From an uncultured Clostridium sp. (GTDB lineage Bacteria; Bacillota; Clostridia; TANB77; CAG-508), in NCBI GenBank assembly GCA_900553985.1, contig USFW01000002.1, positions 875-64,874 on the forward strand: a stretch of 64,000 nucleotides of DNA, given 5' to 3'. This document shows positions 43,208-64,000 of the stretch, in pieces. Position 1 is the stretch's first letter. Each line of letters starts with the position of its first letter. A program made the position numbers and the translations under genes. The notes below the pieces were generated by a model. That model was not told the DNA's origin. It ran no database searches and saw nothing but the letters and a program-made list of their open reading frames with translations.

Positions 43208-43693
43208 TCAATAGAATTTTACATTTTTTTCTTTTTTATTCTCACTATCATATTTTAAAGAACTATTTTTAGGAATACCATATTCTCTCTCCATAGCATC
43301 AATTGAAACTACCCATTGTTTTCCATATTTGCATACATCTATTCCATCTATTAATTTTCCATATGATATTGCTTTTCTAAGTGTACTTTCGTTTAACCCC
43401 CAAATCAATGTTGCATCACTAAAAGCCATTAATCCATCAAATGGTGTTTCTATAATTTTACCATTTTCAAATAACTCATCACAAGAAATATCTATATCAT
43501 CACTCCATATTATTCCATAACCTCCAATATCTACTTGAACACTATAAAATAATTCTTCATTTCTTAATATTTTAAACATTGAATTATTTTCTATTAATTG
43601 TTTTACATTATATATTTTAGTAATTCCTTCGGAAAATTGAACTAATATTTTATAATCAGGATAAGCCGTTACATTTTTTATTTTATGAAACAT
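43208..43693 (-). CDS. DUF2442-like domain fused to a C-terminal helix-turn-helix
   Basis: The N-terminal part (IKNVTAYPDYKILVQFSEG...GGYGIIWSDDIDIS) looks like DUF2442. The C-terminal part (ATLIWGLNESTLRKAISYGKL) looks like an HTH. Confidence 0.5.
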   Translation of the reverse strand: MFHKIKNVTAYPDYKILVQFSEGITKIYNVKQLIENNSMFKILRNEELFYSVQVDIGGYGIIWSDDIDISCDELFENGKIIETPFDGLMAFSDATLIWGLNESTLRKAISYGKLIDGIDVCKYGKQWVVSIDAMEREYGIPKNSSLKYDSENKKEKNVKFY

Positions 43694-43705
43694 AAGTATC
43701 CCCCC

Positions 43706-43946
43706 TTATTCTAATGGTTTTATTTTTTTAAAGTTTTGAGTATCCCATATTTCTTTTAACTCTTCTTCATGAATTGAAATCCATTCTGTTACTAATTCTA
43801 AAGCTTTTTTCTATTATTTTCTTCTCTTGAAAATCTATTGCAGCAACATTCTCACCATAAATTGCATGTATATGTGGTGGATTATGCTCACTTTGTTGAA
43901 AATACATTCTTATTATAATTCCATAAAATCTCGATAAAACTGGCAT
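43706..43946 (-). pseudogene. DUF4160-like small protein, frameshifted in an A-run
   Basis: MPVLSRFYGIIIRMYFQQSEHNPPHIHAIYGENVAAIDF is the family signature. The expected C-terminus KALELVTEWISIHEEELKEIWDTQNFKKIKPLE continues in another frame after AGAAAAAAGC. Missed by the ORF track. Confidence 0.55.
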
Positions 43947-44070
43947 TTTTACCTCCTTACTATATATAGTATATCACATTTCTTATACTATCATATAATG
44001 TATTATCTCTACATTTACATATTAGTATTATTTATATTATCTAACTTTATTATAATATTTGGAGGATTTT

Positions 44071-44220
44071 ATGGGTTCTTATGAATTTATTACTTTTATC
44101 TCTACTCTTGCTTACAGTATTTCTCAAAATAAAACTCAAGAAGAAGTTGAGTTACTAGCTTTGTTTTTTACTCAATTAGGGGATACTTTGGCAACTTTAT
44201 CTAATATAAATTTTAAATGA
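44071..44220 (+). CDS. 49-aa small protein (FFTQLGDTLATL motif)
   Basis: RBS GGAGGA lies 5 nt before ATG 44071. Translation: MGSYEFITFISTLAYSISQNKTQEEVELLALFFTQLGDTLATLSNINFK. It resembles a small conserved clostridial family. Confidence 0.45.
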   Translation: MGSYEFITFISTLAYSISQNKTQEEVELLALFFTQLGDTLATLSNINFK

Positions 44221-44469
44221 TATACTATAAAAAAAAGACTATAATAGAATTATTTTTAACTATCATAGCCTTTTGATATTTATTTATGGTACCATCGAAG
44301 TAGTTATCTACAACTTTTTTGGCTCTCTTGACGATTGATACAAATATCAATCAATTTATTATTAATTTAACATAACTTTTATAATATTGCAAGAGATAAT
44401 TTTATTTTTTGAACTTTATATTTATAAACTATAATATAACTGTCAAAACTATTGTATTATTTACTTTTC

Positions 44470-45237
44470 CTATATAATGTCTTTACTTATTTGATTCCAC
44501 AGCTTTTCCAATCCTTCTTTTTCTTTATCAAATATAGAATTGGGTAATATTATATGAGAATAACTTTTTAAGCATTCATACTCCATAACATATTCAATAA
44601 TTATAGGAATATCTTTTTCTTGATATCCATCAGTCAGAAATATTTTATAAAAATTGTCATATAATATTTTTACATTTATATGATAGTATATTATTTTTAT
44701 TAAATCTAGCAAAATATCTGCTGAAAAAATTATTTGTGTTAATAATGCTATTATTTCTATATTATCTATTTGTGTTATAACTATGATCCACATTACTACA
44801 ATAAAAAGCATTTTTATAACTTTCTTTAAAATCATCTTTTCTGTAATCTTATTAGTATATAATACACTTTCAAAATTATTTACTCCAAGTCTTTTTATCG
44901 AAGGTTCTACTTTATTAGTATAATATCCTTCGCTTCTAGTAGTAGTAATATTTATACCAAAAGAGTTTGATATCATTGTTTTTCTTAATTCACTTTCCGC
45001 CTTATTTTTTAATATAATATCTGTATATCCACTAATAACAATGTAAATAATATTTACTATTATTAATCCATAATTCAATATACTTGATATAGAACTGTCT
45101 TTACAAAAACAAATTAATAACATTAAAATTATATTAACAACATAAATACTCAACATTATATTTTCATTATTGGAACATTTATCAAATAACTTATGAGATT
45201 CATTTTTATATTTATCTGCCATACTTACCTCATTCAA
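44470..45237 (-). CDS. Four-TM membrane protein, candidate S-4TM-type effector partnered with the SMODS gene
   Basis: Two pairs of TM helices (IMLSIYVVNIILMLLICF / LIIVNIIYIVISGY and MLFIVVMWIIVITQ / IIALLTQIIFSADILLDLI). Its start overlaps the upstream stop by 8 nt. Confidence 0.5.
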   Translation of the reverse strand: MNEVSMADKYKNESHKLFDKCSNNENIMLSIYVVNIILMLLICFCKDSSISSILNYGLIIVNIIYIVISGYTDIILKNKAESELRKTMISNSFGINITTTRSEGYYTNKVEPSIKRLGVNNFESVLYTNKITEKMILKKVIKMLFIVVMWIIVITQIDNIEIIALLTQIIFSADILLDLIKIIYYHINVKILYDNFYKIFLTDGYQEKDIPIIIEYVMEYECLKSYSHIILPNSIFDKEKEGLEKLWNQISKDII

Positions 45238-46033
45238 ATATCTTCTTTATTTGTTCTTCTGCTAATGAAGAAAATCCACTATTTTCGTAACCTTTTGCAC
45301 TTTGTATACACTCTTTAGCTTTTTCTATTCTTGATGTAACATATTGATCAATATATTTATATTGTCCAATAAAATAGAAAGCCCAATCTAAATAATCAAA
45401 ACTAGATTTACAGTTAGAATAAGAATATTGAAATTTATCTGTCAAAAATGTTTCAAGCTCATAGGAACTATATTTCCTATAGTTCTTTTTAATATTCCAA
45501 TATTTCATAATCCTTACTATTCTTTTAAATTCATATAATGTATCGTTATTAACATCTAACATCTTATCATTCAATTCTTTTGGATTCGTATATTGCCAAC
45601 TTGAAGAATCTAAAGCAATATATTTAGTTCCCCACAATGTTTCATATGCAGGAACTAATTCAAATTTAATATTTTCCAGTTCTATAACTATTGTAGGAAG
45701 AGATTGCTTAACAATAGATGTTGAATACCTATACTCTGCAAATCCTTTTAACCAATTCAAACATGTTTGTGGAGTAAATTGATTAGCATCTTCGAAAATA
45801 ATCATATAATCCACATCTGATTTTTCATCGTATCTTCTTGAAAGCATAGTGTCTCTACTATACGAACCAAATATTTCCTTTTTTACAATTTTATGCTCAC
45901 AATTTTTGCCTCTGCCAAAGTACATATTCAATCTTGAAGATATTGCATCAATAGATTTTCTTATTTTTTCTCTTTCAGTACCATTAACATATAATTCATT
46001 TTGTAAATTTGCTAAATAACTATTAATAGACAT
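45230..46033 (-). CDS. SMODS/CD-NTase-like pol-beta nucleotidyltransferase
   Basis: FGSYSRDT (G-S motif), SDVDYMIIF (DxD) and KFELVPAY (third acidic strand). 267 aa. Confidence 0.6.
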   Translation of the reverse strand: MSINSYLANLQNELYVNGTEREKIRKSIDAISSRLNMYFGRGKNCEHKIVKKEIFGSYSRDTMLSRRYDEKSDVDYMIIFEDANQFTPQTCLNWLKGFAEYRYSTSIVKQSLPTIVIELENIKFELVPAYETLWGTKYIALDSSSWQYTNPKELNDKMLDVNNDTLYEFKRIVRIMKYWNIKKNYRKYSSYELETFLTDKFQYSYSNCKSSFDYLDWAFYFIGQYKYIDQYVTSRIEKAKECIQSAKGYENSGFSSLAEEQIKKIFE

Positions 46034-46400
46034 ATTTTTCTCCTATAAAAATTTTTTAGTAAATTATATCATGTTTTGTCCCAAAAATCCACTAATTTTA
46101 TAATTTACAGGATAAAATGTAGGTTTGTCAAACATATTTCTCTACGATAACTGTAACTATTCAGTGGCAAAATGATTTAGAACTTAAAGCATTTTTTGTA
46201 TAATTAGAATTAAATCATATTAAATACAACAATAATTCGGATTAATTCTGAATAATTACAATATTTTTCAAAATTTTGTTTTGTTCGCTTGTATTTTGCT
46301 AAATATTGTTGTATATTAGTATTCATAGGAAATGAGAATAAGCAGATGTGGTTTGCCACTTTTAATCCACAACGTTAGTTGTGAGTGAGGAGGTGGTACT

Positions 46401-46511
46401 ATGATAGAAGTTGTTTTATTAGAAATAATATACTTACTTTTATTTGTTATAGTTGTCGAAACTATTATAGTATTTGCCTTAATTATACTGGTTATAATTT
46501 TAAGCAAATAG
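46401..46511 (+). CDS. 36-aa hydrophobic peptide, type-I-toxin-like
   Basis: The strong RBS GAGGAGGTGG lies 6 nt before ATG 46401. Translation: MIEVVLLEIIYLLLFVIVVETIIVFALIILVIILSK. A bidirectional terminator follows. Below the ORF-track cutoff. Confidence 0.5.
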   Translation: MIEVVLLEIIYLLLFVIVVETIIVFALIILVIILSK

Positions 46512-46516
46512 ACAAT

Positions 46517-46557
46517 AAAAAAACACATCTGTACTTGACGGTTAGGTGTGTTTTTTT
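46517..46557. terminator. Bidirectional terminator after the 36-aa ORF
   Basis: AAAAAAACACATCT ... AGGTGTGTTTTTTT forms an 8-bp stem (one G-U pair) flanked by A and T runs. Confidence 0.65.
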
Positions 46558-46639
46558 ACATATATAACTGGCAAACCACGTTTGTGGTTTCTCCATTTCC
46601 TATTTTTATTATAATCAAATTTATTGAAAAAGTCAATAT

Positions 46640-46689
46640 AAATTGCAATTTATTATTTTTTTCTAAATTGCAATTTATTATTTTTTTCT
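46640..46689. repeat. Perfect 2 x 25-bp tandem direct repeat
   Basis: AAATTGCAATTTATTATTTTTTTCT occurs at 46640-46664 and 46665-46689. The second copy overlaps the stop codon of ORF 46688-47500. Confidence 0.85.
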
Positions 46690-47500
46690 AATATTCTAAT
46701 TGTTGTTTCTTTCTAACATATAATACTTTCATTTTATATTGAACTCTCAATGGAATAGGCATAGTAGACCAACCTGTAATAAATTCATTAACTTTTAAAG
46801 GCAAATCTATTTTGTTTTTTTCTTCTGTAACTTTTGGTTGAATTTTGCTTAATTCTATTGTATTATCTGTTCTTAATACAATCTCATCTTTTGTTATATT
46901 TATTATTTCTGCTTCACTATAATTAAAGTGAAAAACACTTCCTTTAGGAATATCATATAAATTCAGCTGTTCAACTGTTCCTCCTACATAATTAGTTTCA
47001 ATCCTTATTCCACATACTAAATCATAATCTTCCGTTTCATCATCAGTTATATTTAAATTGTTAAAATCTGTAAAGTTGAGATATTGTTCTATCTCATATT
47101 CATTATTGAGCTGTTGTTGAATTTCTTCATTTCTTATATTAGTTACAATTTCTTTATTTTTAACAAAAGCAACGAAATTATTATAAAATTCTTGCCAGTT
47201 ATTCGGACAATATTCTATTCCAGCATATCTTTTTGCTCCATTATTGTTTGTTTTTATTAAAATAGACCACCCTGATTCAGGACTAATACTTTTTACAAAA
47301 AAATTTTTCCACTCGTTAGATATTGATACTAAATATGTTACGAATTTATAAAATGCTTCACTATCTATATTGTGCTTTTCAACAAGCTTTGTTCCATTTA
47401 TAAAATGTTTAATTTCGTTTTCATTTATTCTAAATTTATCGTTACCTATGACTATCACTAATTCATTAACATCTTGTTCAAAATATACTGGATTATTCAT
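46688..47500 (-). CDS. Hypothetical protein, 270 aa (element cargo)
   Basis: Long ORF, first of a same-strand run. No motif recognised. Confidence 0.45.
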   Translation of the reverse strand: MNNPVYFEQDVNELVIVIGNDKFRINENEIKHFINGTKLVEKHNIDSEAFYKFVTYLVSISNEWKNFFVKSISPESGWSILIKTNNNGAKRYAGIEYCPNNWQEFYNNFVAFVKNKEIVTNIRNEEIQQQLNNEYEIEQYLNFTDFNNLNITDDETEDYDLVCGIRIETNYVGGTVEQLNLYDIPKGSVFHFNYSEAEIINITKDEIVLRTDNTIELSKIQPKVTEEKNKIDLPLKVNEFITGWSTMPIPLRVQYKMKVLYVRKKQQLEY

Positions 47501-47522
47501 TTCTATGTTCTCCTAATATTCA

Positions 47523-47972
47523 TTATTTTTTAAATATACATTTTATCTTATTGAATATTTTTGTAAATAAAGACTCTTTATATTCAACCATTGCTACATT
47601 ATCACTAGTATTATCAGTTTCAATATTAATTTGTTTTTTGTTTTTAAAAATATCATTTGGATTATATTTTTCATATTTTTCTTTTTCAAGTTTTTCCATA
47701 TCATATTTTTCTTTTTCTTCAATTCGTTGTTTTTGATAGTCAGTAGCCCAGTATTCTTTAAAAACATTAGCTAAAATCGCTTTTGCCTCTTTTGAAATAT
47801 TTTGTTCCGACAATGGCTTTTCTTCATCTATTTCAAAGTTATAATCTTCTTTCATATTATCTAGCCACAATAATAATTTTTCACTTGGGATTTTATTTAC
47901 ATCATCTTGATTTGTATATTTTAGTATTTCTACTACTTCTCTATATGCACAAGCATAATTTTCAGCTACCAT
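47523..47972 (-). CDS. Hypothetical protein, 149 aa
   Basis: ORF with a K/E-rich C-terminal half. No motif recognised. Confidence 0.45.
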   Translation of the reverse strand: MVAENYACAYREVVEILKYTNQDDVNKIPSEKLLLWLDNMKEDYNFEIDEEKPLSEQNISKEAKAILANVFKEYWATDYQKQRIEEKEKYDMEKLEKEKYEKYNPNDIFKNKKQINIETDNTSDNVAMVEYKESLFTKIFNKIKCIFKK

Positions 47973-47991
47973 ATTTATATTCTCCTTTGTT

Positions 47992-48369
47992 TTATTTATC
48001 TAATTCATCTAATGATGATTCTCTTAGGGCTTCTAATTCATCCTCTACTCTTCGAGCTTCTTTCTTATCTTGAGTAGGTGTATTTATAGTTGCCTTTCCA
48101 ATATCTATTGCAGTAAATCTTGGTTTTGGCAGAGGTTCTGCAAAAGCTTTTGAAAAACTGAATCCGCCTAATCCACCAAATCGCATATCTAGTGTTTCTC
48201 GTGCTTTTCTTTCTTGATCTCTCTTCCTTGTTTGTTCTGTCAAATCCCAACTATCAATCTTAGTTTCACTTGATTCGCTTTTATCTATATATGTTCCTTC
48301 TAAATTTTTCTTTTCAATATTTGCATCTAATGGTTGTGTTCCTTCGATACTTTTACTCATTTTTTTCAC
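47992..48369 (-). CDS. Hypothetical protein, 125 aa
   Basis: ORF with charged, low-complexity sequence. No motif recognised. Confidence 0.4.
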   Translation of the reverse strand: MKKMSKSIEGTQPLDANIEKKNLEGTYIDKSESSETKIDSWDLTEQTRKRDQERKARETLDMRFGGLGGFSFSKAFAEPLPKPRFTAIDIGKATINTPTQDKKEARRVEDELEALRESSLDELDK

Positions 48370-48428
48370 CTCATAATAATTATAACATTTCTAATTTTTA
48401 TTGTAAACAGTAACAGAACAATAAAATG

Positions 48429-48728
48429 CTAAATTTTCAAATTATTGAACAAATACAATGCAACTTTATTTTGTGATGTTGTTTCCATCTCCATAAGTTT
48501 AGCCATTGCAAACATTACAAGTTTATATTTTGCAAAGTTTATTAAAGTAGTTCTATATTCTTCGTCAATATCCTTTAACATTTTATCAAATTTTTCATAG
48601 TTTTCTCTAGTGTTGTATATAAGACCTGACCATTTACTTTGGCTCATACATATTGCTAGTCTTAATTTATCTTTTATATCCATATCATTTATCATATTTA
48701 TTAAATATTCAACTTTTTCGTTTTCCAT
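48429..48728 (-). CDS. Hypothetical protein, 99 aa
   Basis: ORF directly downstream of the relaxase gene. No motif recognised. Confidence 0.4.
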   Translation of the reverse strand: MENEKVEYLINMINDMDIKDKLRLAICMSQSKWSGLIYNTRENYEKFDKMLKDIDEEYRTTLINFAKYKLVMFAMAKLMEMETTSQNKVALYLFNNLKI

Positions 48729-48746
48729 ATTCTAATTACCTCCATA

Positions 48747-50132
48747 TTAAAATCTTGTATTATTTTTCTTTCTATTTTTCTCAGTTTTGTTTTCATTTGG
48801 CATAGTTACTTTTCTATAAATATTATTGGCTATTTCATTATCGTTGTCATCAAATATTCCGTTTTTATATAAATCATCACTAACTATTTTATAATTTTCA
48901 TTTTTATCATAGCATATTCGCTTGTGGAAATGGCTCATAATATTATGCCAAAAGTCTTTAAATTTTTTCAGCTCTTGTTTTATTTTTTCCTTTTCAGCCT
49001 GTAATTTGTTTATAATTTTATCTTTAGTTGATAATTTATTTTTTAGATTACTAATTTCATCATCTTTTAACTCTAACTGATATTTAAGAGAACGATTTTC
49101 TTGTGCTATCTCAAAAGAATTATGCTCAAAATCCTTAATTGCTATATTTAAGTCATTTACACTTCTAACAGTTTTAGTAATATCTTTTACGTCTTTAGTA
49201 TAATTTTTAAGTTTCTGGACATCCTCGTTTGAAATAATCATATTATTTTTGTTTAGCTTAGTAGGTTTTAAATTATCTAATATTGCATTAACATCTTTAC
49301 TATAATTATCAAGTTGTTTTGTTTGATTATTAGCTTTTGCAAGTTTTTGTTCTTTCTGTTCTAGTTGTTTCTTTATTTTTCTATAATCTTCCATATCCTT
49401 AACATTTATATCTTGATTTCTGCCTTTTTGTTTTTCTTTTAATTTTGTATCAACTTCATAAAACTTGTTATAGGACTTAATACAAGCATTTCTCATTTTA
49501 TCTTGTATTTCAGTTAATGAGTTTTTAGTAAATACTTGTGATTTTCCAACTTGTTTTTTCATTCCTCTTTTGCAATTCTCAATAATCGGTACTCCAACAA
49601 TGTGTAAATGAGGAGATGTTTCATCAAAATGTATTGTAGCATTTGCTATTTTAAAAGTTGGCACAATTTTGGTTAAGTCCTTTATTTGTTCATTATATAC
49701 ATCAATCATTTTTAATCTATATTCTTGGTCTTTATCATTCCAAAAATCCATATCTCCAAGTTCTATTATAATTTCACAAGCTATATCATTTTGTGAATCG
49801 CATACTTTTGTAAAATAATTATTTATTTTCCTATCATCTCTAGTTTGTTTATTGTTATATTCAATACGAGATTTTTCAAATTCTCTTAAATATAGTTCTT
49901 GCACATCATTTACAATATTTTCTGTACCATAAATAACTCTAATCAATTCTTTTTCATTATCATAATCTCTTAAATTATGCTTATTAATTCTAGATAAATC
50001 GTTTGCATTTTGAATCGCATTATTTGATAGAGAAGTAGTACCAGATACATTATCTTTTGATACTCTTTTGGCTAATTTGCTTTTGTTTTTATCACTACCT
50101 AAGTGAAATGAATATGCTAGTTCTTGTTCCAT
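48747..50132 (-). CDS. MobV (Pre/Mob) family relaxase
   Basis: HFDETSPHLHIVGVP (HxDE...PHxH) signature and a long C-terminal coiled coil. Start 50132 lies behind RBS AAGGGGGTG. Confidence 0.8.
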   Translation of the reverse strand: MEQELAYSFHLGSDKNKSKLAKRVSKDNVSGTTSLSNNAIQNANDLSRINKHNLRDYDNEKELIRVIYGTENIVNDVQELYLREFEKSRIEYNNKQTRDDRKINNYFTKVCDSQNDIACEIIIELGDMDFWNDKDQEYRLKMIDVYNEQIKDLTKIVPTFKIANATIHFDETSPHLHIVGVPIIENCKRGMKKQVGKSQVFTKNSLTEIQDKMRNACIKSYNKFYEVDTKLKEKQKGRNQDINVKDMEDYRKIKKQLEQKEQKLAKANNQTKQLDNYSKDVNAILDNLKPTKLNKNNMIISNEDVQKLKNYTKDVKDITKTVRSVNDLNIAIKDFEHNSFEIAQENRSLKYQLELKDDEISNLKNKLSTKDKIINKLQAEKEKIKQELKKFKDFWHNIMSHFHKRICYDKNENYKIVSDDLYKNGIFDDNDNEIANNIYRKVTMPNENKTEKNRKKNNTRF

Positions 50133-50198
50133 CAAAAGCACCCCCTTGAAGATTCTTTTTAAGCCGAAGGCTCTATAAAAATACGAAGTATTTTTCAC

Positions 50199-50265
50199 AG
50201 GACTTTGGCTCTGTCATAAGTCCTAACCCCCTATGAGTTTTGACATACTATCAAAACTCGGGGGG
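50199..50265 (-). other. Candidate oriT (two adjacent inverted repeats upstream of mobV)
   Basis: Two inverted repeats: AGGACTT..AAGTCCT (50199-50226) and CCCCCTATGAGTTTTGA ... TCAAAACTCGGGGGG (50227-50265). Confidence 0.45.
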
Positions 50266-50416
50266 CTCTGCAAGGCAATAAAATTTACTTTTTCAAAGAT
50301 AAATTTTATCCAAATTAACTATCGCCACTTTCATTTTTGCTAATTGCAAAAACAAAACGTGCCACGTTAATTTGATTGTTGCAACAAAGAAAATTTATAA
50401 GTAATAGTTGCAACAA

Positions 50417-52351
<1,935 letters not shown>

Positions 52352-52515
52352 CTAACAAAAAAGACATCAAAAGTACAAACTAATACTAATGACATCTCTG
52401 TAAAATTTCTATTTTAAAATGCAATTTTTTCAAAATCATATAATCATCTCCATAAACATAATTGGTTTACTTTGATTATTATATCATAATTTGTAAAAAT
52501 GTCAAATACTGGTAT

Positions 52516-52785
52516 TTATATGTTTTTTATATATTCTTCTAATTCTGATAATTTAATCTTTTTAGTTAAATTTGAAATATATACATCATTTGAATAATTA
52601 AAAACTAAGAATGCAATATTTTTAATTATTACTCTATGTGGTTCAATATATGTGAGATTAGTTTTTTCAATTTTTCTAATACTACCATTAATAAAAGTAG
52701 GAGTAACTTTAGAAAATTCACATATAAATTCTAGTCTTTGCTTTAGACTTTCTTCAAATTGTAGTTCTTGCTTAATTATCTTCAT
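52516..52785 (-). CDS. Hypothetical protein, 89 aa, between the recombinase and the right element end
   Basis: ORF only. Confidence 0.35.
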   Translation of the reverse strand: MKIIKQELQFEESLKQRLEFICEFSKVTPTFINGSIRKIEKTNLTYIEPHRVIIKNIAFLVFNYSNDVYISNLTKKIKLSELEEYIKNI

Positions 52786-53299
52786 TTACTTGCACCATCC
52801 TTTCGATTGGATGATTTTAATATTGTTTATAGACAACAAAAAAATCAACCAGATTTTATTTTCTGATTGATTTTGTATCAATTCTGTTCTATTAGTTCGA
52901 ACAGATACGTCATTGGTACCGATGGTGGATTACTCATATCTTTTGTATTATGCTATTTTCAATAGTTTTACTTGTCGTTTTTCTAATTTGGGTAAATTTT
53001 GGGTAATCTACGATACAATTATATTTCTATAGCATTTTATTTATAATTTTTATTCTAGCAACATTCACTACTTTAATAAAAGTCTTTCTAAATATCCTTA
53101 CTACAATTCTTTCTTTCCAATTTAATTCTTTTACTATTTCTTCTACTACTGCATCTTTCATATAAATTTCTCCTTTTATTAATCTAAAGAGCTCTTCTGT
53201 TTTGTATTTTATAATAAATTTTATAAAAATGAGAAAAAATTATACGAAAGTGCCTTTACATTTTACAAAACGACATTTTTCGACAAGAGTTGTACAATT

Positions 53300-53533
53300 T
53301 TAGGGTATTTTTTTAATTATTTCGATTTCTCCTGTTTCGTACAAATCTGTAATTTTTTCCTTTAATGTATCTGCTATTACTAGCATTTCTATAAATAATA
53401 TCTTGTCTGTTTCTATTTTGTTATTCTCTAAGTCTTGTAGCCTTCTTCTGTCTATTCCTGTTTCTTCTGCTAAGTAATTTAAACTTAACCCAGATTTTTC
53501 TCTTGCTTCTTTTATTTTTAATTTTACTATCAT
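53300..53533 (-). CDS. XRE-family HTH transcriptional regulator
   Basis: IKEAREKSGLSLNYLAEETGIDRRRLQDLENN. I preferred start 53533 behind AGAGGTGG. Confidence 0.75.
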   Translation of the reverse strand: MIVKLKIKEAREKSGLSLNYLAEETGIDRRRLQDLENNKIETDKILFIEMLVIADTLKEKITDLYETGEIEIIKKIP

Positions 53534-53572
53534 AAAACCACCTCTGCTTATTGTTTGCAAAGGTGGTTACTG

Positions 53573-53746
53573 TTATACTTTTTTTGCTAGTTTTATTATT
53601 TTTCTAAAACTCCTTGTTTGTGACATTGCTTTTAAACTTTCTCCAGATAAAATTAAATAATAATTCGTTAGTTTTCTATATTCTTTTTCATTCTTTATTT
53701 TCATTAGTTTTATCATTTGCAGGGATTTTTTATACATTTCTTGCAT
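53573..53746 (-). CDS. Hypothetical small protein, 57 aa
   Basis: RBS AAAGGAG lies before Met 53746. No motif recognised. Confidence 0.35.
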   Translation of the reverse strand: MQEMYKKSLQMIKLMKIKNEKEYRKLTNYYLILSGESLKAMSQTRSFRKIIKLAKKV

Positions 53747-53827
53747 ACTATCATCTCCTTTTAAATAGTATAACATTTTATGTTGACTTTGTCGCAAGAA
53801 ATTTGTCGAAAAGAAAAAGAACTATTG

Positions 53828-54187
53828 CTAGTTCTCTTTTAAATAATTTTCGAAAGCATTTAAAAATCTTACTAAATCTTCTTCCTCTACTTCTCCTATT
53901 TTTTTATTTATATTATCACTTGGTATTTGCATTAATTGGTCGCATTTCACAATACTATCTACCATTAAATTATTGCTACTGTCTTTTTTTATTTCTTCAT
54001 TATATTTAAATATAGAATTTTCTTTGCTTTTGCTTAAATTAGAAGATACCACAAATCCAAAATAATCTGCTGGTACTACATTTCCATCATCATCTATTAT
54101 TACAAATAAATGACTTTTCACTGTATTGTTTTCTTCTCTTTTTATTGCTTCTGATGCAAAAACTATATCTCCCATTTGGTACTGCAT
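53828..54187 (-). CDS. PemK/MazF-like toxin-fold protein
   Basis: MGDIVFA...HLFVIIDDD...FGFVVSSN...SIVKCDQLMQIPSDNINKKIGEVEEEDLVRFLNAF follows the MazF/PemK strand pattern. Confidence 0.45.
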   Translation of the reverse strand: MQYQMGDIVFASEAIKREENNTVKSHLFVIIDDDGNVVPADYFGFVVSSNLSKSKENSIFKYNEEIKKDSSNNLMVDSIVKCDQLMQIPSDNINKKIGEVEEEDLVRFLNAFENYLKEN

Positions 54188-54213
54188 TCTTACTACATCT
54201 CCTTTTGCTTATT

Positions 54214-54366
54214 TTAACTATAATTCTCTGATTTTCCTTTGTGGATTTCTTTTTCAACAGGGAACTCCTTGAAAGCAATAGTATGAGATTTTATAAGACC
54301 TTTTTCTTTTGCAAGTAAAACTAATCTCTTAGCATTTTTTTGAATTTCACTAGTATTTGTTTTCAT
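54214..54366 (-). CDS. 50-aa ORF upstream of the MazF-like gene (candidate antitoxin)
   Basis: RBS AAGGAGGGGG precedes ATG 54366. Translation: MKTNTSEIQKNAKRLVLLAKEKGLIKSHTIAFKEFPVEKEIHKGKSENYS. Its stop is 27 nt before the MazF-like start. Below the ORF-track cutoff. Confidence 0.4.
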   Translation of the reverse strand: MKTNTSEIQKNAKRLVLLAKEKGLIKSHTIAFKEFPVEKEIHKGKSENYS

Positions 54367-54672
54367 AGTACCCCCTCCTTTTTTATTTATACATTATTAT
54401 ATCACAAAAAATATATAATTTCAAATATATATTTTGTACTTCTTTATTATTATATATACTTATTTTTTTTAATTGTCAATATTTTATTAAGTTTTTTTAT
54501 TATTTTATACACTTTTTTCTCTATTATACTTTTTTGCTAAAAAGCTAAAAAAATTGACTCTTCAAAACCTATTTTAAGCCGTTTTTATTTTATTCTAATA
54601 TACTTACATCCCTTAATTTTAAGCCTTTTTTCATAATTTTAAAATATTTTTAACTTTTTTTTGAAAAAAGTA

Positions 54673-54701
54673 TTGACATACTATGCATAGTATAGTACAA
54701 T
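54673..54701 (+). promoter_or_regulatory. Promoter TTGACA-17-TACAAT with a 16-bp palindromic operator in the spacer (copy 1)
   Basis: Part of the 62-bp repeat 54664-54725. The palindrome ATACTATGCATAGTAT lies at 54678-54693. Confidence 0.65.
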
Positions 54702-54734
54702 ATATTTAAGTTAAGAGAGAAAGGAGGAAAATAA

Positions 54735-54851
54735 ATGATTAATAAAATAAAAAGAGCATTGCTAAATACTAGATTAGCAGCCAAACTAATAGATAAGTAT
54801 TTAAGCAAACGCCCTATAATCCAAATTGCTAACTCTATTAATAAAGATTAG
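54735..54851 (+). CDS. 38-aa small ORF
   Basis: RBS AAAGGAGG. Translation: MINKIKRALLNTRLAAKLIDKYLSKRPIIQIANSINKD. The hairpin AGAGAGG..CCTCTCT follows. Confidence 0.35.
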   Translation: MINKIKRALLNTRLAAKLIDKYLSKRPIIQIANSINKD

Positions 54852-54928
54852 CACGAGAGAGGTTACTTCCTCTCTTGTATAAATAATTATATAATATATA
54901 ATAAAAAAAATCAAGGGAGGTATTTTTG

Positions 54929-55102
54929 ATGGCAAGAAATTATGAAAAAGAAAGAGAATGGCAATTAAAAAAATATGACCAAATACGAGCTAATATAGAC
55001 AAAGATCTTGGAACAGCATTAAGAAAAAAAATAAAAAGTGAAGGAAAAAGTATTGCTAGTTGGGTTACAGAGAATGCAAAAAAATATTTAAAAGAAAATT
55101 AA
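54929..55102 (+). CDS. 57-aa small basic protein
   Basis: RBS GGGAGG. Translation: MARNYEKEREWQLKKYDQIRANIDKDLGTALRKKIKSEGKSIASWVTENAKKYLKEN, possibly ribbon-helix-helix-like. Confidence 0.4.
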   Translation: MARNYEKEREWQLKKYDQIRANIDKDLGTALRKKIKSEGKSIASWVTENAKKYLKEN

Positions 55103-55110
55103 AAAAAGTA

Positions 55111-55139
55111 TTGACATACTATGCATAGTATAGTATAAT
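55111..55139 (+). promoter_or_regulatory. Promoter TTGACA-17-TATAAT with the same palindromic operator (copy 2)
   Basis: Part of the 62-bp repeat 55102-55163, which is 61/62 identical to copy 1. The palindrome lies at 55116-55131. Confidence 0.65.
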
Positions 55140-55164
55140 ATATTTAAGTTAAGAGAGAAAGGAA

Positions 55165-55368
55165 ATGATTATTATGGTAAAAACAATTTATTATACAGTA
55201 GAAAATGGAATAAAAAATTTAGAATGGATAGCAAGAGATATAGAAACTAAAGAAGTTGTAAAAGAATTTGAAGATATGCAACAAGCTTTAAAATTTGTAA
55301 ACGAAAATGAAAATACAGAATTATATGATAGAACAACAAAACAAGTTTTTGAATTTATAAGAAGATAA
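55165..55368 (+). CDS. Hypothetical phage protein, 67 aa
   Basis: ORF downstream of promoter copy 2. Confidence 0.4.
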   Translation: MIIMVKTIYYTVENGIKNLEWIARDIETKEVVKEFEDMQQALKFVNENENTELYDRTTKQVFEFIRR

Positions 55369-55404
55369 AATGTAAATAATTTATTATAAAAGGAGGAATT
55401 TAAA

Positions 55405-55647
55405 ATGAGAAAAGTAGAAGAAAATTTAACACAAGAAGAATTTAATAGTTATTGTGAGGATGTTAGAAATAGAATGGAAAGTGAAACAACATATTATGGG
55501 CAAATAGACGAAACAGTTGCTTATTCTGGAGATTTAAAAGTAAAACATATTTATGGGGATGAAAATGATGAACATGAATCTGTTTTATACGAAGAAAAAT
55601 ACAATGAAGAAAATGACACTGTAACTTATGATATTTGGGAAGATTAA
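55405..55647 (+). CDS. Hypothetical acidic phage protein, 80 aa
   Basis: RBS AGGAGG. Strongly acidic. Confidence 0.4.
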   Translation: MRKVEENLTQEEFNSYCEDVRNRMESETTYYGQIDETVAYSGDLKVKHIYGDENDEHESVLYEEKYNEENDTVTYDIWED

Positions 55648-56150
55648 TTATGGGAACTTTTAAAGATTTAACAGGTAAAAAATTTAATAGATTAACCGTA
55701 TTAGGTTTAGCAGAAAGAAATTCTAGTGGGCAAATACAATGGAAATGTAAATGTGATTGTGGTAACATTGTATTTGCTACTACAACTTATCTAAAAACAG
55801 GACATACAAAATCCTGTGGTTGCTTAAATAGAGAGTCTGCATCCAAAAGGTTAAAAAGCAAAACATTTGTAGAAGCAAGAAATAATTATAGAAAAAATAA
55901 CTTTTTAATAGAAGGAACTTCTTTAGCTTTAATCTCTTCTGCTAATTTAAGAAAAAACAACAAAACTGGCATTAATGGTGTTTATTGGGATAAAAAATTA
56001 AAAAAATATAGAGTTTCTATATGTTTACAAAGACAAAAAATTAACTTAGGTGCTTTCGAAACATTGGAAGAAGCTAAAAAAGTTAGACTAGACGCAGAAG
56101 AAAAATACTACAAGCCAATTATAGAAAAATATAAAGACAGTAGCAACTAA
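55635..56150 (+). CDS. AP2-domain DNA-binding protein with an N-terminal Cys cluster
   Basis: CKCDCGN...SCGC zinc-like cluster. TGINGVYWDKKLKKYRVSICLQRQKINLGAFETLEEAKKVR matches the AP2/integrase DNA-binding domain pattern. Confidence 0.6.
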   Translation: MGRLIMGTFKDLTGKKFNRLTVLGLAERNSSGQIQWKCKCDCGNIVFATTTYLKTGHTKSCGCLNRESASKRLKSKTFVEARNNYRKNNFLIEGTSLALISSANLRKNNKTGINGVYWDKKLKKYRVSICLQRQKINLGAFETLEEAKKVRLDAEEKYYKPIIEKYKDSSN

Positions 56151-56366
56151 TAATCTACTGTCTTATATTTATATCTTTTTTACACCTTGTATTATAGTTA
56201 AGCTTGTTTTTAAATATTAGAAAACTAATATTTATTTAAAATTATAAAATAATTTTAATACATCTCATGTTATAGTTAAACTAAATAAGTTATATTTTTT
56301 ATATCATAATTGCTAAATATTGTCAATATTTTTTTAAAATTAAAAATTAAAAACTCCTATTAGAAT

Positions 56367-57164
56367 TTATAATCCACCATTATATTTAACAAATCCTACT
56401 TTTCTGTTTAAAACTTTTCCTTCTGAATCCGTAATATAATATGCTACTATGTATTTGCCTTGCATTATCCCAAAACATTCTGCATATTCTTGTGGATATA
56501 TTGTTCCTATTTTTTTTGTACAATTAACATCTCCATATACTATTTCTGGTTTTGTTCCATTTTTCCATGTTTTTGGCATATTAAATTCCTCCCAATTATT
56601 ATTATTTGTATTTCCAACTTCATTAGAGTTACAACTTCCTTCTTTTAATCCAAAGCCTTCTGCTACTCCATCTGCTATCGCTTGGCAAATTGCATCTTTA
56701 TTGTTTTGGTATGTTTGTATATCTTCTGCATTATCTATAAAACATACTTCCAGTAAAGCAGAACTTACACCTTTTTTCTTAGCAGAATAGATTACATTAA
56801 AATTCTTTTCTTTTACTCCTCTAACTGTGAAGAATTGTGATAATTTATTCATTATTTTTTCTTCTACTGTTTTTGCATTTTCTATTCTTGTTGTGTATAT
56901 CTCTGCTCCTTTTGCACTGCCGTTAAAGCTATTAAAATGGATTTCTAGCACATAATTATAGTTAGCAAAGTTAACTTGTATATTTCCATTATTAACATCT
57001 TTAAAAGCGTCCCTAGTTTGATTATACACATCTATATCTGCATATCTTTTAAGTTTTTCTTTTAGCATATTTACCACTTCTCTAGTTAAGTCTGCTTCTT
57101 TATATCCATTTGCACAAGCTCCATTATCTCCTGCACCATGGCCACTAATTAATAATATTTTCAT
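56367..57164 (-). CDS. Endolysin: N-acetylmuramoyl-L-alanine amidase (Amidase_3) with a C-terminal binding domain
   Basis: MKILLISGHGAGDNGA...EIHFNS...ALLEVCFIDN. It lies directly downstream of the holin. Confidence 0.85.
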   Translation of the reverse strand: MKILLISGHGAGDNGACANGYKEADLTREVVNMLKEKLKRYADIDVYNQTRDAFKDVNNGNIQVNFANYNYVLEIHFNSFNGSAKGAEIYTTRIENAKTVEEKIMNKLSQFFTVRGVKEKNFNVIYSAKKKGVSSALLEVCFIDNAEDIQTYQNNKDAICQAIADGVAEGFGLKEGSCNSNEVGNTNNNNWEEFNMPKTWKNGTKPEIVYGDVNCTKKIGTIYPQEYAECFGIMQGKYIVAYYITDSEGKVLNRKVGFVKYNGGL

Positions 57165-57168
57165 TCCT

Positions 57169-57441
57169 TTATTTCTCCTTATTAATTAAATTTCTAAACA
57201 TTTCGTATAGCCCTGTACTAGCAAGACCACTAATCATTCCGCCTAAAATTACTTCTGCATTAATTCCATTTATATTTATTAGAATATTTGTTATAGTTCC
57301 TAAAATTAGCATTATTAAAGGTATGTATTTATTTGGTATAAAATCCAAACTATTTTTTATTACAAATCCTACGCATAAGCAAATTCCTAAAACTACAATA
57401 TTTACATAGTTTAATAAAACTGTTATATCCATTTCATTCAC
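57169..57441 (-). CDS. Phage holin
   Basis: 90 aa with 2-3 TMs and a charged C-terminus (FRNLINKEK). YIPLIMLILGTI...GGMISGLASTGLYE motif. Confidence 0.75.
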   Translation of the reverse strand: MNEMDITVLLNYVNIVVLGICLCVGFVIKNSLDFIPNKYIPLIMLILGTITNILININGINAEVILGGMISGLASTGLYEMFRNLINKEK

Positions 57442-57444
57442 TCC

Positions 57445-57879
57445 TTAATTTAAAAATTTTGATAATCCTAAAGCACCAGCAATAAGTGCTAAGGCTCCTG
57501 TTAGAATCCAAGAAAATACTTTACTTTTAGAATTTCTCCAATTATTAGCGTCTTTTATTACTGTTTCTTGTTGCAGTTTTACATCTAATTTTTCGTATTT
57601 CTTTTCTAATTCGTTGTATTTTTCTTTTAATATTTCTGTTTCTTTACTATTTGCAGTATTGCTTCTCATTATCGCTTCTTTAAAATTTAAGCTTGTTGTT
57701 TTTAAATCTTCTGCAATATTTTTAATTTGTTCTACAGTAACAGAAAGAGACTTATCTATATTGCTTAACACTTCTTCGTTTTTTTCTATTCTTGTCTCTA
57801 TTTCATTCAATCTTTTTGTGTTAGACTTAGCTCTTTCTTCTACTGCAACTAATCTTTCTATTATCTTATTGTTTTCCAT
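57445..57879 (-). CDS. XhlA-like haemolysin/lysis accessory protein
   Basis: N-terminal coiled coil (ERLVAVEERAKSNTKRLNEIETRI) and a single C-terminal TM. Confidence 0.6.
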   Translation of the reverse strand: MENNKIIERLVAVEERAKSNTKRLNEIETRIEKNEEVLSNIDKSLSVTVEQIKNIAEDLKTTSLNFKEAIMRSNTANSKETEILKEKYNELEKKYEKLDVKLQQETVIKDANNWRNSKSKVFSWILTGALALIAGALGLSKFLN

Positions 57880-58066
57880 CTGCTATTTCCTCCACTTCTA
57901 AATCAGGAATTGTGTATACTTCTTCTACTTTTAAAGTTAAAGCTGTATATTCTTCATCGTTTATTTGGTTAACTGCATAAAATACTGCTAATTTAGCATT
58001 TGCTTCTTCTTTATTTTTGTAGAATTTTTTGTTTATTAAATTCTCTAATAATTTTGATATTTGCAT
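57866..58066 (-). CDS. Small protein in the XkdX-like position after the tail fibre
   Basis: 66 aa. NQINDEEYTALTLKVEE resembles the XkdX ending. Assigned by position. Confidence 0.4.
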   Translation of the reverse strand: MQISKLLENLINKKFYKNKEEANAKLAVFYAVNQINDEEYTALTLKVEEVYTIPDLEVEEIADGKQ

Positions 58067-60262: not shown

Positions 60263-60272
60263 TTTTTACCTC

Positions 60273-60812
60273 CTACTTAAGAATCATTACCTGTAAATAT
60301 CCTTCTAATATTTCAGTTTCCCCTGCATTTTGACTTTCTAACACAATACTTATCTTATCTCCATTGTTTGCTGATAAATATGTACTTATACATACTGTAT
60401 TATAGCCAGTGTCGTTTGATTGATAGCTTGCTTCAACTGTCTTTCCATTTTTTTGGAGCATTACAGCCTTATCTCCAGCATTGCCGAAGAATCCTATTCC
60501 TCCAGTAAAAACGTCAACTTTTACTAATTTTGCCTCGCCAGAAATTGTTATTGCGTTATTGTTTAATGCTAAATATTCCTTTTCATTGTCATTGTTAATA
60601 TCAACTGTCCCAAGCGATATTGTTGCTTTTCCGTAGCTACCACTAGTTTGCAATTTCTGTCTATTAATTCTTGCTTTTAATATTGGTTTCTTTTCTACTT
60701 CTGTAATAGCTTCTTGTGTGTTGTTTTCCATTTGCTTTAGATTTCCACTGTCAATAGGAGTATCTTCACTAGGTTCATCTTTCCACCCTATTCTTTTCAA
60801 CTCTACTGCCAT
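60273..60812 (-). CDS. Phage tail-associated protein, 179 aa
   Basis: MAVELKRIGWKDEPSEDTPIDSGNLKQMENN is typical of short tail-fibre module proteins. Assigned by position. Confidence 0.45.
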   Translation of the reverse strand: MAVELKRIGWKDEPSEDTPIDSGNLKQMENNTQEAITEVEKKPILKARINRQKLQTSGSYGKATISLGTVDINNDNEKEYLALNNNAITISGEAKLVKVDVFTGGIGFFGNAGDKAVMLQKNGKTVEASYQSNDTGYNTVCISTYLSANNGDKISIVLESQNAGETEILEGYLQVMILK

Positions 60813-63520: not shown

Positions 63521-63522
63521 TT

Positions 63523-63939
63523 CTAACCTCCTGCATTTAATACAGTTTGTTTCTGTTGTTCTGTCAATTCTTTTTGCATTAAATTAAAAGACACTTTCCA
63601 TTTAGATTTGGAAGTGTCTTCATCATTTCCTGTTAAATGCATTTCGCTTGTTCTTTTACTTACTCTAAATTTAGCATTTTCTAACATCCCACCTTTAACA
63701 GCTGGACATTTTACAGTAATTATAAGAGGATTTCTATAAGTTAGTTGTAGTAATTTTTCTGCTTCCTCTTCCGTCAGATAATCCCAACTCATTTCTAATT
63801 TTAACATTCCTACTGCTATTGGGTTATCTATTAATGCACCTGTTACTTTACTAGTATAACTATCGTTATCTGTATCTTCTATATTGTCTTTATATGTGCT
63901 TGGAGTTTTTTGTACTACTCCATCTACTTTCCATAACAT
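63523..63939 (-). CDS. Phage tail component, 138 aa (distal-tail position)
   Basis: It sits between the end of the upstream long gene and the Tal-like gene. No motif recognised. Confidence 0.4.
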   Translation of the reverse strand: MLWKVDGVVQKTPSTYKDNIEDTDNDSYTSKVTGALIDNPIAVGMLKLEMSWDYLTEEEAEKLLQLTYRNPLIITVKCPAVKGGMLENAKFRVSKRTSEMHLTGNDEDTSKSKWKVSFNLMQKELTEQQKQTVLNAGG

Positions 63940-63942
63940 ATT

Positions 63943-64000
63943 TTATCCTCCTACTAAAGCTTCTATTCCACTTCCGATTCTTCTTTTTTTATCTTTTAAA
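63943..64000 (-). CDS. 3' end of a phage gene running off the window (tape-measure position)
   Basis: The open frame ...LKDKKRRIGSGIEALVGG ends at stop 63943-63945. Only 19 codons are visible. Confidence 0.3.
   Translation of the reverse strand, partial: LKDKKRRIGSGIEALVGG

Follow-up and report, generated by a model that had tools for sequence, protein, structure and literature searches.

Type I systems of anti-phage signalling based on cyclic oligonucleotides (CBASS) with membrane effectors have been described in several forms, and the one to which the locus reported here can best be likened is EcCdnD12-4TM, a type I CBASS classed as four-transmembrane (4TM), which in E. coli achieves a restriction of at least 10,000-fold against phages from five families (Richmond-Buccola et al., bioRxiv 10.1101/2023.05.21.541620). 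Its toxicity is induced by the prohead-protease scaffold domain of phage and requires the catalytic aspartates (bioRxiv 10.1101/2023.05.21.541620). Among other transmembrane (TM) effectors of CBASS, Cap15 acts on the membrane (PMC10419184), and Cap14 is a cGAMP-gated ion channel (PMC10402079). Here we describe a two-gene locus found at positions 44470-46033 of a stretch of 64,000 nucleotides from an uncultured Clostridium sp. (contig USFW01000002.1), hereafter called the window. The locus is very probably a type I CBASS anti-phage system with a 4TM-class effector, carried as cargo of about 1.9 kb on an 8.6-kb mobilisable element, and we propose for it an abortive mechanism that would be triggered by infection. 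The CBASS classification used throughout, as implemented in the PADLOC program, is reportedly that of Millman et al. (2020).

The gene pair and its predicted proteins

The locus consists of two intact adjacent open reading frames (ORFs), both on the minus strand and arranged head to tail, the first encoding a cGAS/DncV-like nucleotidyltransferase (CD-NTase) and the second a membrane protein. The features needed to follow the argument are these:

45230..46033, minus strand: predicted CD-NTase (SMODS) cyclase, clade-D-like, 267 aa (assigned from SMODS and PADLOC matches, the AlphaFold model and Foldseek)
45223..45229, minus strand: spacer of 7 nt between the cyclase stop codon (TGA, 45230-45232) and the effector ATG, read directly from the sequence
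44470..45222, minus strand: predicted 4TM CBASS effector, 250 aa when read from the ATG at 45222 (assigned from PADLOC, hydropathy and the AlphaFold model)
46102..46131, minus strand: TTGACA-18-TAAATT, a promoter-like site some 70 nt upstream of the cyclase ATG (a consensus match only)

The cyclase ATG is preceded, at a distance of 6 nt, by the ribosome-binding site (RBS) AGGAG, while the effector ATG at 45222 has a GAGG 5 nt upstream that overlaps the cyclase stop codon. In all 19 of the 19 aligned effector homologues, translation starts at the position of this ATG (M-x-x-K-Y-K-N-E), and because these homologues and the RBS agree, the effector is taken to be 250 aa long and to be separated from the cyclase by 7 nt. 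An earlier, sequence-only reading of this DNA had given the effector 255 aa and an overlap of 8 nt with the cyclase gene; both values are an artefact of a TTG start at 45237 and have to be replaced. Related operons likewise have gaps of 2-8 nt between the cyclase and effector genes and never an overlap. The two genes are, judging by their arrangement, co-transcribed. Rfam searches of the whole window (at the gathering threshold) and of 44200-46750 (at E up to 1) yielded neither a credible RNA family nor a riboswitch linked to CBASS.

The motifs FGSYSRDT, SDVDYMIIF and FELVPAY occur in that order in the 267-aa protein encoded at 45230-46033, as the sequence-only reading had already pointed out, and its further proposal that the protein belongs to the SMODS/CD-NTase group is borne out by sequence models, profile and fold. 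The protein matches Pfam SMODS (PF18144) with 110.9 bits (cut-off 26.5; E 9.8e-32) over profile positions 1-164 of 164, as well as the PADLOC CBASS Cyclase model PDLC00769 with an E-value of 1.9e-75 over residues 1-267, and about 30 further PADLOC cyclase models match it more weakly. Its AlphaFold model (AF2) has a predicted local distance difference test score (pLDDT) of 93.6 and a predicted TM-score (pTM) of 0.89, and when this model is compared with the PDB using Foldseek, the best 50 matches are all CD-NTases, with query-normalised TM-scores (TMq) of 0.51-0.82. Similarly, a profile of 53 cyclase homologues retrieves CD-NTases only among PDB sequences. Matches to nucleotidyltransferases involved in antibiotic modification are limited to a streptomycin adenylyltransferase at E 0.73 in a single-sequence search; by hidden Markov model (HMM), profile and fold the protein groups with CD-NTases and not with nucleotidyltransferases of the MNT/KNTase type.

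Regarding the clade to which the cyclase belongs, the 53-homologue profile gives E-values of 4.2e-16 for BcCdnD (9sa4), 2.3e-14 for PaCdnD, 1e-9 to 7e-8 for the Salmonella and Enterobacter CdnD proteins (Se/EcCdnD), 1.4e-4 for EcCdnC and 1.2e-3 for BfCdnB, and therefore ranks clade D before clade C before clade B. The best Foldseek E-value is that of PaCdnD (1.4e-11), and the best TM-score that of BfCdnB (TMq 0.82). This clade signal comes from profile and fold rankings and not from a phylogeny of a reference set; on its strength, clade D is probably the nearest among solved structures. The active-site residues correspond to G56-S57, D73-V-D75 and E125. In the alignment of the 53 cyclases, FGS and SD[V/I]D are found in 52/52 of the sequences not gapped at these columns, Glu serves as the third acidic ligand in 49/53 and Asp in 4/53, and the Lid 1 threonine (T149) is invariant. 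By these residues, the polymerase-beta active site of the 267-aa cyclase is intact.

The second protein contains four hydrophobic segments forming two hairpins (approximately residues 23-40, 48-68, 137-152 and 157-178; Kyte-Doolittle maxima of 2.1-2.7 over 19 residues), in agreement with the two pairs of TM helices that had been noticed before. The loop between TM2 and TM3 (residues 69-136) is enriched in Lys and Arg, which suggests that it is cytoplasmic. The PADLOC 4TM model PDLC00719 matches the protein at 7.5e-48, covering residues 15-254 in the 255-aa reading and profile positions 9-254 of 256, and a second model, PDLC00726, matches it nearly full length at 6.9e-28. No Pfam family, S_4TM (PF18159) included, matches at E up to 1. 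When 66 spread-out members of the effector family were compared with Pfam, 0/66 matched S_4TM at E up to 0.01, and no Pfam family recurred consistently. The earlier likening of the protein to S-4TM effectors can thus be upheld as far as the full-length match to the PADLOC 4TM class goes, but not with respect to the Pfam family of that name; to judge by these searches, the effector family is separate from Pfam S_4TM, or at least beyond the reach of that model. The family is nevertheless a large one, as the effector profile retrieves 619 of 1.84 billion cluster representatives (clusters at 50% identity) with an E-value of 1e-3 or less and 444 with one of 1e-10 or less, nearly all of them about 250 aa long.

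The AF2 model of the effector (pLDDT 80.2, pTM 0.76) is all-helical, with seven helices, of which the long ones span the TM segments. Foldseek finds no significant match for this model in the PDB (best E 0.2, TM-score at most 0.4) and nothing significant among the viral structures of BFVD, where no match falls below E 0.2; a few giant-virus SLATT proteins appear at E of about 1 and were not counted as evidence. At the sequence level, the comparison with PDB chains gives a single chance-level match, to a transporter (E 0.91), the comparison of the N-terminal with the C-terminal half by hhalign detects no internal duplication, and the search of the phage collection with the protein yields no match. 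No transporter family matches the protein, which answers the concern, raised together with the original proposal, that it might belong to an unrelated family of transporters.

Residues conserved across the 66 divergent family members fall into three regions: the TM2-TM3 insert (A75, E76, R80, Y100, Y101, N103, S108, N115 and E118), TM4 (Q163, F166 and S167) and the C-terminal helices (Y215, E216, K219 and W242). Expressed as motifs, the insert reads A-E-x-x-R-R-K ... G-Y-Y-N-N ... P-S ... N-x-F-E-S and the C-terminal part E-Y-E-x-x-K ... W. All family-invariant residues are present in the window protein. We infer that the TM2-TM3 insert and the C-terminal helices form a candidate nucleotide-binding surface, and that the TM4 motif may be part of a membrane-active core.

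System class, proposed mechanism and alternatives

The gene order, SMODS first and 4TM second, is kept in all divergent relatives with a readable upstream gene, i.e. in five independent loci and in the plasmid pMRC01. In two of the five loci (L140/L141), the effector is 65% identical to that of the window and adjoins a tyrosine integrase together with replication and MobC genes, whereas in a third (L142) it is 47% identical and adjoins a UvrD helicase. The remaining two (L144 and L146) have cyclases that are 41-44% identical, followed downstream by genes that lack any Pfam assignment and match the effector profile at 4.6e-24 and 1.1e-39, respectively. In pMRC01 of Lactococcus lactis (NC_001949 21584-23131, L147), the cyclase is 44% and the effector 28% identical, the proteins being 261 and 252 aa long and matching PDLC00769 at 2.9e-82 and PDLC00719 at 9.7e-47. 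They are annotated as 'nucleotidyltransferase domain-containing protein' and 'hypothetical protein', with an IS6-family transposase and a recombinase flanking the pair. We take pMRC01 to be a classic phage-resistance and lacticin plasmid of Lactococcus. By the title of their 1997 paper, Coakley et al. reportedly present it as a phage-resistance plasmid; for the pair described here this is a lead and not evidence. Judged again by a title, that of Fallico et al. (2009), pMRC01 is said to raise cell permeability and autolysis.

A different partner is observed in one further relative. Locus L145 (CP019046.1 489519-498343; pair at 3498-4825) contains a more distant cyclase homologue, 36% identical, whose partner is a SLATT-type 2TM effector (PADLOC 2TM, 7e-68), and this pair is inserted between hsdS and hsdR of a type I restriction-modification (R-M) operon.

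The assignment to type I follows from the lack of accessory genes. A PADLOC scan of the neighbouring element ORFs detects no Cap2, Cap3, HORMA/TRIP13 or other PADLOC-recognised gene near the pair, as the sequence-only reading had also concluded for Cap2, Cap3 and HORMA, and a sibling element (L104) retains all the other ORFs of the element without the pair. For the same reasons, namely the lack of a PADLOC or Pfam match and their presence in L104 without the pair, the ORFs at 46688-48728 were rejected as CBASS accessory genes. What the locus does contain is a cyclase and an effector that are adjacent, on the same strand and separated by the 7-nt spacer, and that both match PADLOC CBASS models.

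Several observations nevertheless weigh against reading the locus as a CBASS of the known kind. First, one distant effector relative (P0135, 37% identical) is preceded by a gene fragment, cut by the contig end, that has no detectable similarity to the cyclase. Second, the cyclase scores 83.1 bits against the NCBIfam equivalog CBASS_cyclase_b (NF041117), where the cut-off is 200, and it therefore lies outside NCBI's curated cyclase families. Third, its third metal ligand is Glu, differing from the L-D-L motif that the BcCdnD paper gives for clade D (PMC13424991). Fourth, the rules set out for clades C and D in that paper, which use the first residue of X-G-S-X and a Lid 2 His or Gln to predict cAAA or cAAG (PMC13424991), turned out to be inapplicable, the first residue being Phe and the Lid 2 position Leu or Phe; as the latter is not His or Gln, the nucleotide product cannot be predicted. 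Fifth, the promoter assigned to the cassette is a bare consensus match, and a promoter scan of this AT-rich DNA found 33 sites where 25 are expected in shuffled sequences, i.e. no enrichment. Finally, the effector has no recognisable nucleotide-sensor domain of the SAVED, STING, Cap15-type beta-barrel or CARF kind.

In the mechanism that we propose, and which is modelled on established CBASS biology, the cyclase would remain inactive until phage infection, whereupon it would be activated to produce a cyclic di- or tri-nucleotide; the affinity to clade D would make a cyclic trinucleotide our guess. This signal would bind to the cytoplasmic part of the effector, likely to the TM2-TM3 insert and the C-terminal helices, direct binding being an assumption. 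The bound effector would then oligomerise or open, so that the membrane would be breached or depolarised and the infected cell would stop or die before the release of phage progeny (abortive infection). A more specific idea, towards which we are open while leaning somewhat against it, is that the effector represents a new kind of cyclic-oligonucleotide receptor, in which the insert and the C-terminal helices, unrelated to SAVED, STING, the Cap15 beta-barrel or CARF, would gate the four-helix module directly.

The same features could be arranged in an inverted order of events, as in Panoptes, where the cyclase would always be active and its product would keep the effector closed until a phage sponge or nuclease removes the product and so releases the effector. 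This logic is reported to exist with TM effectors in Panoptes (PMC12657218), and it would suit a minimal cyclase of 267 aa that has no accessory regulator and no visible sensor domain. In addition, the cyclase is matched by a profile of the closest relatives of BcCdnD, an enzyme which shows, by its inhibition by ATP, that the resting state of such enzymes can be regulated in an unusual way (PMC13424991). On the other hand, Panoptes relies on an mCpol cyclase instead of a SMODS CD-NTase, conventional behaviour is seen in the one type I CBASS classed as 4TM that has been characterised, with a phage protein inducing toxicity and an active cyclase being needed, and nothing in the sequence indicates constitutive activity. 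We regard such an inverted guard as very improbable.

Slightly less credible again is that the pair serves as an addiction or stabilisation module of its element, without any anti-phage role, in which a membrane toxin would be neutralised by the nucleotidyltransferase or the reverse. It is true that the pair is always found on mobile DNA, be it this element, the tyrosine-integrase element of L140 or plasmids such as pMRC01, and that nucleotidyltransferase toxin-antitoxin pairs exist (AbiE/MenT). However, the nucleotidyltransferase of the window shows SMODS motifs and the CD-NTase fold in place of that of DUF1814 or MNT, both proteins are matched over their full length by PADLOC models derived from CBASS operons, the element possesses a separate type I toxin-antitoxin-like module of its own, and sibling elements (L104 and 37 others) persist without the pair. 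The remaining alternative, to which we attach the same very low credence, is that the genes are intact cargo that is no longer expressed or functional in this host. In its favour are the weak promoter call and a divergence between the window and the copy in L069 of 6 substitutions per gene, too few for a meaningful dN/dS. Against it, both ORFs are full length with good RBSs, all catalytic and family-invariant effector residues are present, and the L069 copy, although it belongs to another species, is 99.2-99.3% identical, from which it follows that the cassette was intact when it was recently transferred. The reading of the pair as a type I CBASS with a 4TM-class effector is accordingly the one retained below.

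The carrier element and its surroundings

The sequence-only reading had placed the pair as cargo on a small mobilisable element, and the cassette does occupy 44393-46323 of what is, by its predicted genes and ends, an integrative mobilisable element of 8.6 kb (44287-52929). The element was compared with a set of 139 loci. The recombinase relatives in this set are 80 of the 410 found in species-representative genomes; these 80 are 83-97% identical to the recombinase of the window, with several per metagenome-assembled genome (MAG). The parts of the element are as follows:

44287..44392: element left end, ending in the core TGGTACCA (44287-44294) beside host DNA, placed by alignment
44393..46323: predicted CBASS cassette, about 1.9 kb, present in the window and L069 and missing from the otherwise collinear L104
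46324..46640: type I toxin-antitoxin-like module, not part of the CBASS (peptide ORF and overlapping antisense RNA)
46688..48369, minus strand: three cargo ORFs (270, 149 and 125 aa), function not assigned, no Pfam or PADLOC match
48429..48728, minus strand: backbone ORF, 99 aa (Cluster 0, 18 copies in siblings; no Pfam or PADLOC match)
48747..50198, minus strand: Mob_Pre (MOBV-type) relaxase, 483 aa (PF01076 37.8 bits, cut-off 25.5), kept in about 53 of the 139 loci
50195..50290, minus strand: oriT-like region directly upstream of the relaxase gene, with two hairpins (DNA fold -17.5 kcal/mol, z = -4.63)
50417..52336, minus strand: large serine recombinase, 639 aa (Pfam Resolvase 2e-32, Recombinase 5e-19)
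52516..52785, minus strand: backbone ORF, 89 aa, kept in about 75 loci (no Pfam or PADLOC match)
52786..52913, minus strand: element right end, beginning on this strand with ATGACGTATCTGTTCGAAC..., a hairpin and then a T-run; about 77 loci match
52914..52929, minus strand: remnant of the 3' end of tRNA-Leu(caa), 16 nt, TCCACCATCGGTACCA, with the second copy of the TGGTACC core (aligned to the tRNA-Leu of L054 and L002)

Three zones can be distinguished in the element, as the backbone (48430-52928) and the left end (44287-44392), to the 44300-44400 part of which about 40 of the 139 loci match, are both conserved, whereas the region between them is variable. In L104, the sequence corresponding to window positions 46324-52925 is followed by about 80 nt and then by the left end, 44392-44281. 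The whole of the 46688-48369 stretch is common only to L069 and L104, and short pieces of the 149-aa ORF match L060 and L054. Read on the minus strand, ...CCACCATCGGTACCA is directly followed by ATGACGTATCTG..., the start of the element, which ends in ...CTTCGATGGTACCA, and within 44000-53100 the sequence TGGTACC occurs only at 44287 and 52914. No match to the element DNA was found in the phage collection. With its relaxase gene and the adjacent oriT-like site, the element is predicted to be mobilisable.

The window contains no complete tRNA gene. In the other loci, 49 right ends could be located, and 37/49 abut the 3' end of a tRNA called by ARAGORN, with 10 anticodons and including tRNAs for Leu, Tyr, Gly, Thr, Cys, Arg and Phe; most of the remaining flanks are tRNA-like and end in CACCA. 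The insertion point of the family therefore appears to lie directly behind the CCA end of tRNA genes, and its serine recombinase appears to target many different tRNAs, a behaviour that is more typical of tyrosine integrases. At the other side, the genome of L002, with a nucleotide identity of about 89%, runs collinear with the window as far as 43240, resumes this collinearity over 43968-44224 and then diverges, its tRNA-Leu(caa) gene lying 265 bp beyond the point of divergence. The interruption of this collinearity is an indel of about 0.7 kb (window 43241-43967), located between a Fur-family regulator gene and the element and containing the genes for a DUF2442-helix-turn-helix protein (43208-43693) and a DUF4160 protein (43767-43946). 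This gene pair was considered as a part of the element and rejected, synteny with L002 resuming at 43968-44224, before the element end.

A degraded relative of the element was also observed at tRNA-Leu(caa) in another MAG (L054, 3940-6100). Its right-end sequence is fused directly to the oriT-like region, which is kept. It lacks the recombinase and the relaxase and still carries a homologue of the 149-aa ORF (window 47523-47972).

Complete siblings (n=38) range from 3.4 to 12 kb, and nearly each of them has its own cargo; examples of such variable regions are L062:14169-17126, L108:14082-18779 and L131:5106-8222 (among loci L060-L138). These cargoes comprise R-M genes (an AlwI restriction enzyme, a D12-class methyltransferase, and type I/IIG methyltransferases with specificity subunits), candidate defence genes (PADLOC PDC-S13 and PDC-S05), a SLOG protein (LDcluster4) and a protein resembling Tad4, the Thoeris inhibitor, as well as HD and metallophosphoesterase proteins (one of 985 aa), GNAT acetyltransferases, an APH-family phosphotransferase and an ABC transporter. 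In L069, the whole 8.6-kb element is 94% identical to that of the window and the CBASS genes are 99.2-99.3% identical, despite an identity of only about 83% between the housekeeping genes of the two MAGs, and it is this discrepancy that argues for a recent exchange of the intact cassette. From such comparisons, the element evidently moves between species of uncultured gut Clostridia.

The region following the cassette, 46324-46640, looks like a type I toxin-antitoxin locus. A strong RBS (46389-46396) precedes an ORF on the plus strand (46401-46511) for a hydrophobic peptide of 36 aa, MIEVVLLEIIYLLLFVIVVETIIVFALIILVIILSK, and a near-consensus promoter on the minus strand (TTGACT-17-TATAAT, 46636..46608) would give rise to an antisense RNA of 283 nt that fully overlaps this ORF and shows long-range pairing between its 5' and 3' parts (z = -7.09). 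The locus is kept in 11 other loci, among them L104 without the CBASS, and the RNA has no match in Rfam. Note also that immediately upstream of the antisense-RNA promoter (minus strand) a 25-nt unit, TAAATTGCAATTTATTATTTTTTTC, occurs as a perfect tandem of two copies (46639-46688), which could be an operator or an iteron-like site.

The DNA that adjoins the element, from 52930 to 64000, is prophage-like, and the following features were recognised in it:

53300-53560: XRE-type helix-turn-helix protein
53828-54187: PemK/MazF-family toxin
56367-57164: Amidase_3 endolysin
57169-57441: Hol44-type holin
58067-62952: tail-fibre-like proteins, one with a Peptidase_S74 chaperone domain

Because the 16-nt remnant of the tRNA-Leu 3' end precedes this prophage-like DNA, we infer that one tRNA-Leu gene holds both the element and a prophage, integrated in tandem, with the other prophage end lying outside the window.

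Comparison with known systems

PADLOC or DefenseFinder would call the gene pair automatically, and an anti-phage phenotype has already been published for a type I CBASS classed as 4TM. The view that 4TM versions are largely uncharacterised experimentally, as expressed in the sequence-only reading, thus has to be given up with regard to phenotype, given EcCdnD12-4TM, but it still holds for mechanism and structure, neither of which we found for any 4TM effector in the literature searched. What makes the locus of interest is that a large effector family (the 619 clusters mentioned above) is without a Pfam model or a significant solved-structure match, and that a pair of 267 and 250 aa constitutes a compact system. 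Moreover, the pMRC01 homologue resides in a cultivable host, Lactococcus, with known phages, so that the sensor question, if the reading is true, would be directly testable. As to the carrier, it represents a very abundant family combining a serine recombinase directed to tRNA-CCA ends with Mob_Pre, whose cargo differs in almost every copy; the near-identical cassettes of the window and L069 document that defence genes have recently been exchanged in the gut.

The carrier can be likened to the Tn4451/Tn4453-type mobilisable transposons of Clostridium. Like them, it is small and has a large serine recombinase at one end, Mob_Pre with an adjacent oriT-like site and a region of cargo; it differs from them in its target, the CCA end of tRNAs, and in carrying defence and accessory genes instead of catP. 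We do not claim membership in the Tn4451 group, as the recombinase is less than 60% identical in all 1691 matching records of the plasmid collection, and 23-30% identical in the best ones listed.

Regarding the effector, S_4TM is said to have been described by Burroughs et al. (2015) as a SMODS-associated four-TM effector. The window effector resembles it as a four-TM protein encoded beside a SMODS nucleotidyltransferase, and differs from it in that neither this protein nor the 66 scanned family members match the HMM. With Cap14 and Cap15 the likeness is that of membrane effectors encoded beside a CD-NTase in type I operons, which kill or arrest the cell via the membrane (PMC10419184, PMC10402079). 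Differently from these, the effector of the window lacks a SAVED or beta-barrel sensor, its model consists of helices only, four of them TM, and no PDB structure matches it significantly.

For the cyclase, the nearest solved proteins are BcCdnD (9sa4), PaCdnD (6p8j) and EcCdnD02 (7d4u), which provide the best profile and fold matches and share the G-S, D-x-D and Lid 1 Thr (T149) residues. The X-G-S-Y motif found here resembles, in addition, the SGSY/TGSY of enzymes that make cyclic triadenylate (cA3), as given in the BcCdnD paper (PMC13424991). These three clade D proteins come, in contrast, from type II/III systems that include nuclease effectors and Cap2/Cap3 or HORMA; they measure 300-390 aa versus 267 aa here, and their motifs PDVDI, LDL and Lid 2 His/Gln correspond to SDVDY, FEL and Leu/Phe in the window.

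The pMRC01 pair agrees with that of the window in gene order, in similar protein sizes, in the PADLOC models matched and in its location on mobile DNA, the difference being that pMRC01 is a conjugative plasmid and the carrier in the window an integrative element. Finally, in comparison with EcCdnD12-4TM, the host is an uncultured low-GC lineage of gut Clostridia and not E. coli, and the cyclase of the window differs in having Glu as third ligand and in falling under the NCBIfam cut-offs. The two systems, which are likened by class and not by effector sequence, have in common that a CD-NTase gene is followed by a four-TM gene, that Cap2, Cap3 and HORMA are lacking, and that the solved cyclases nearest by profile to that of the window belong to clade D, the clade of EcCdnD12.

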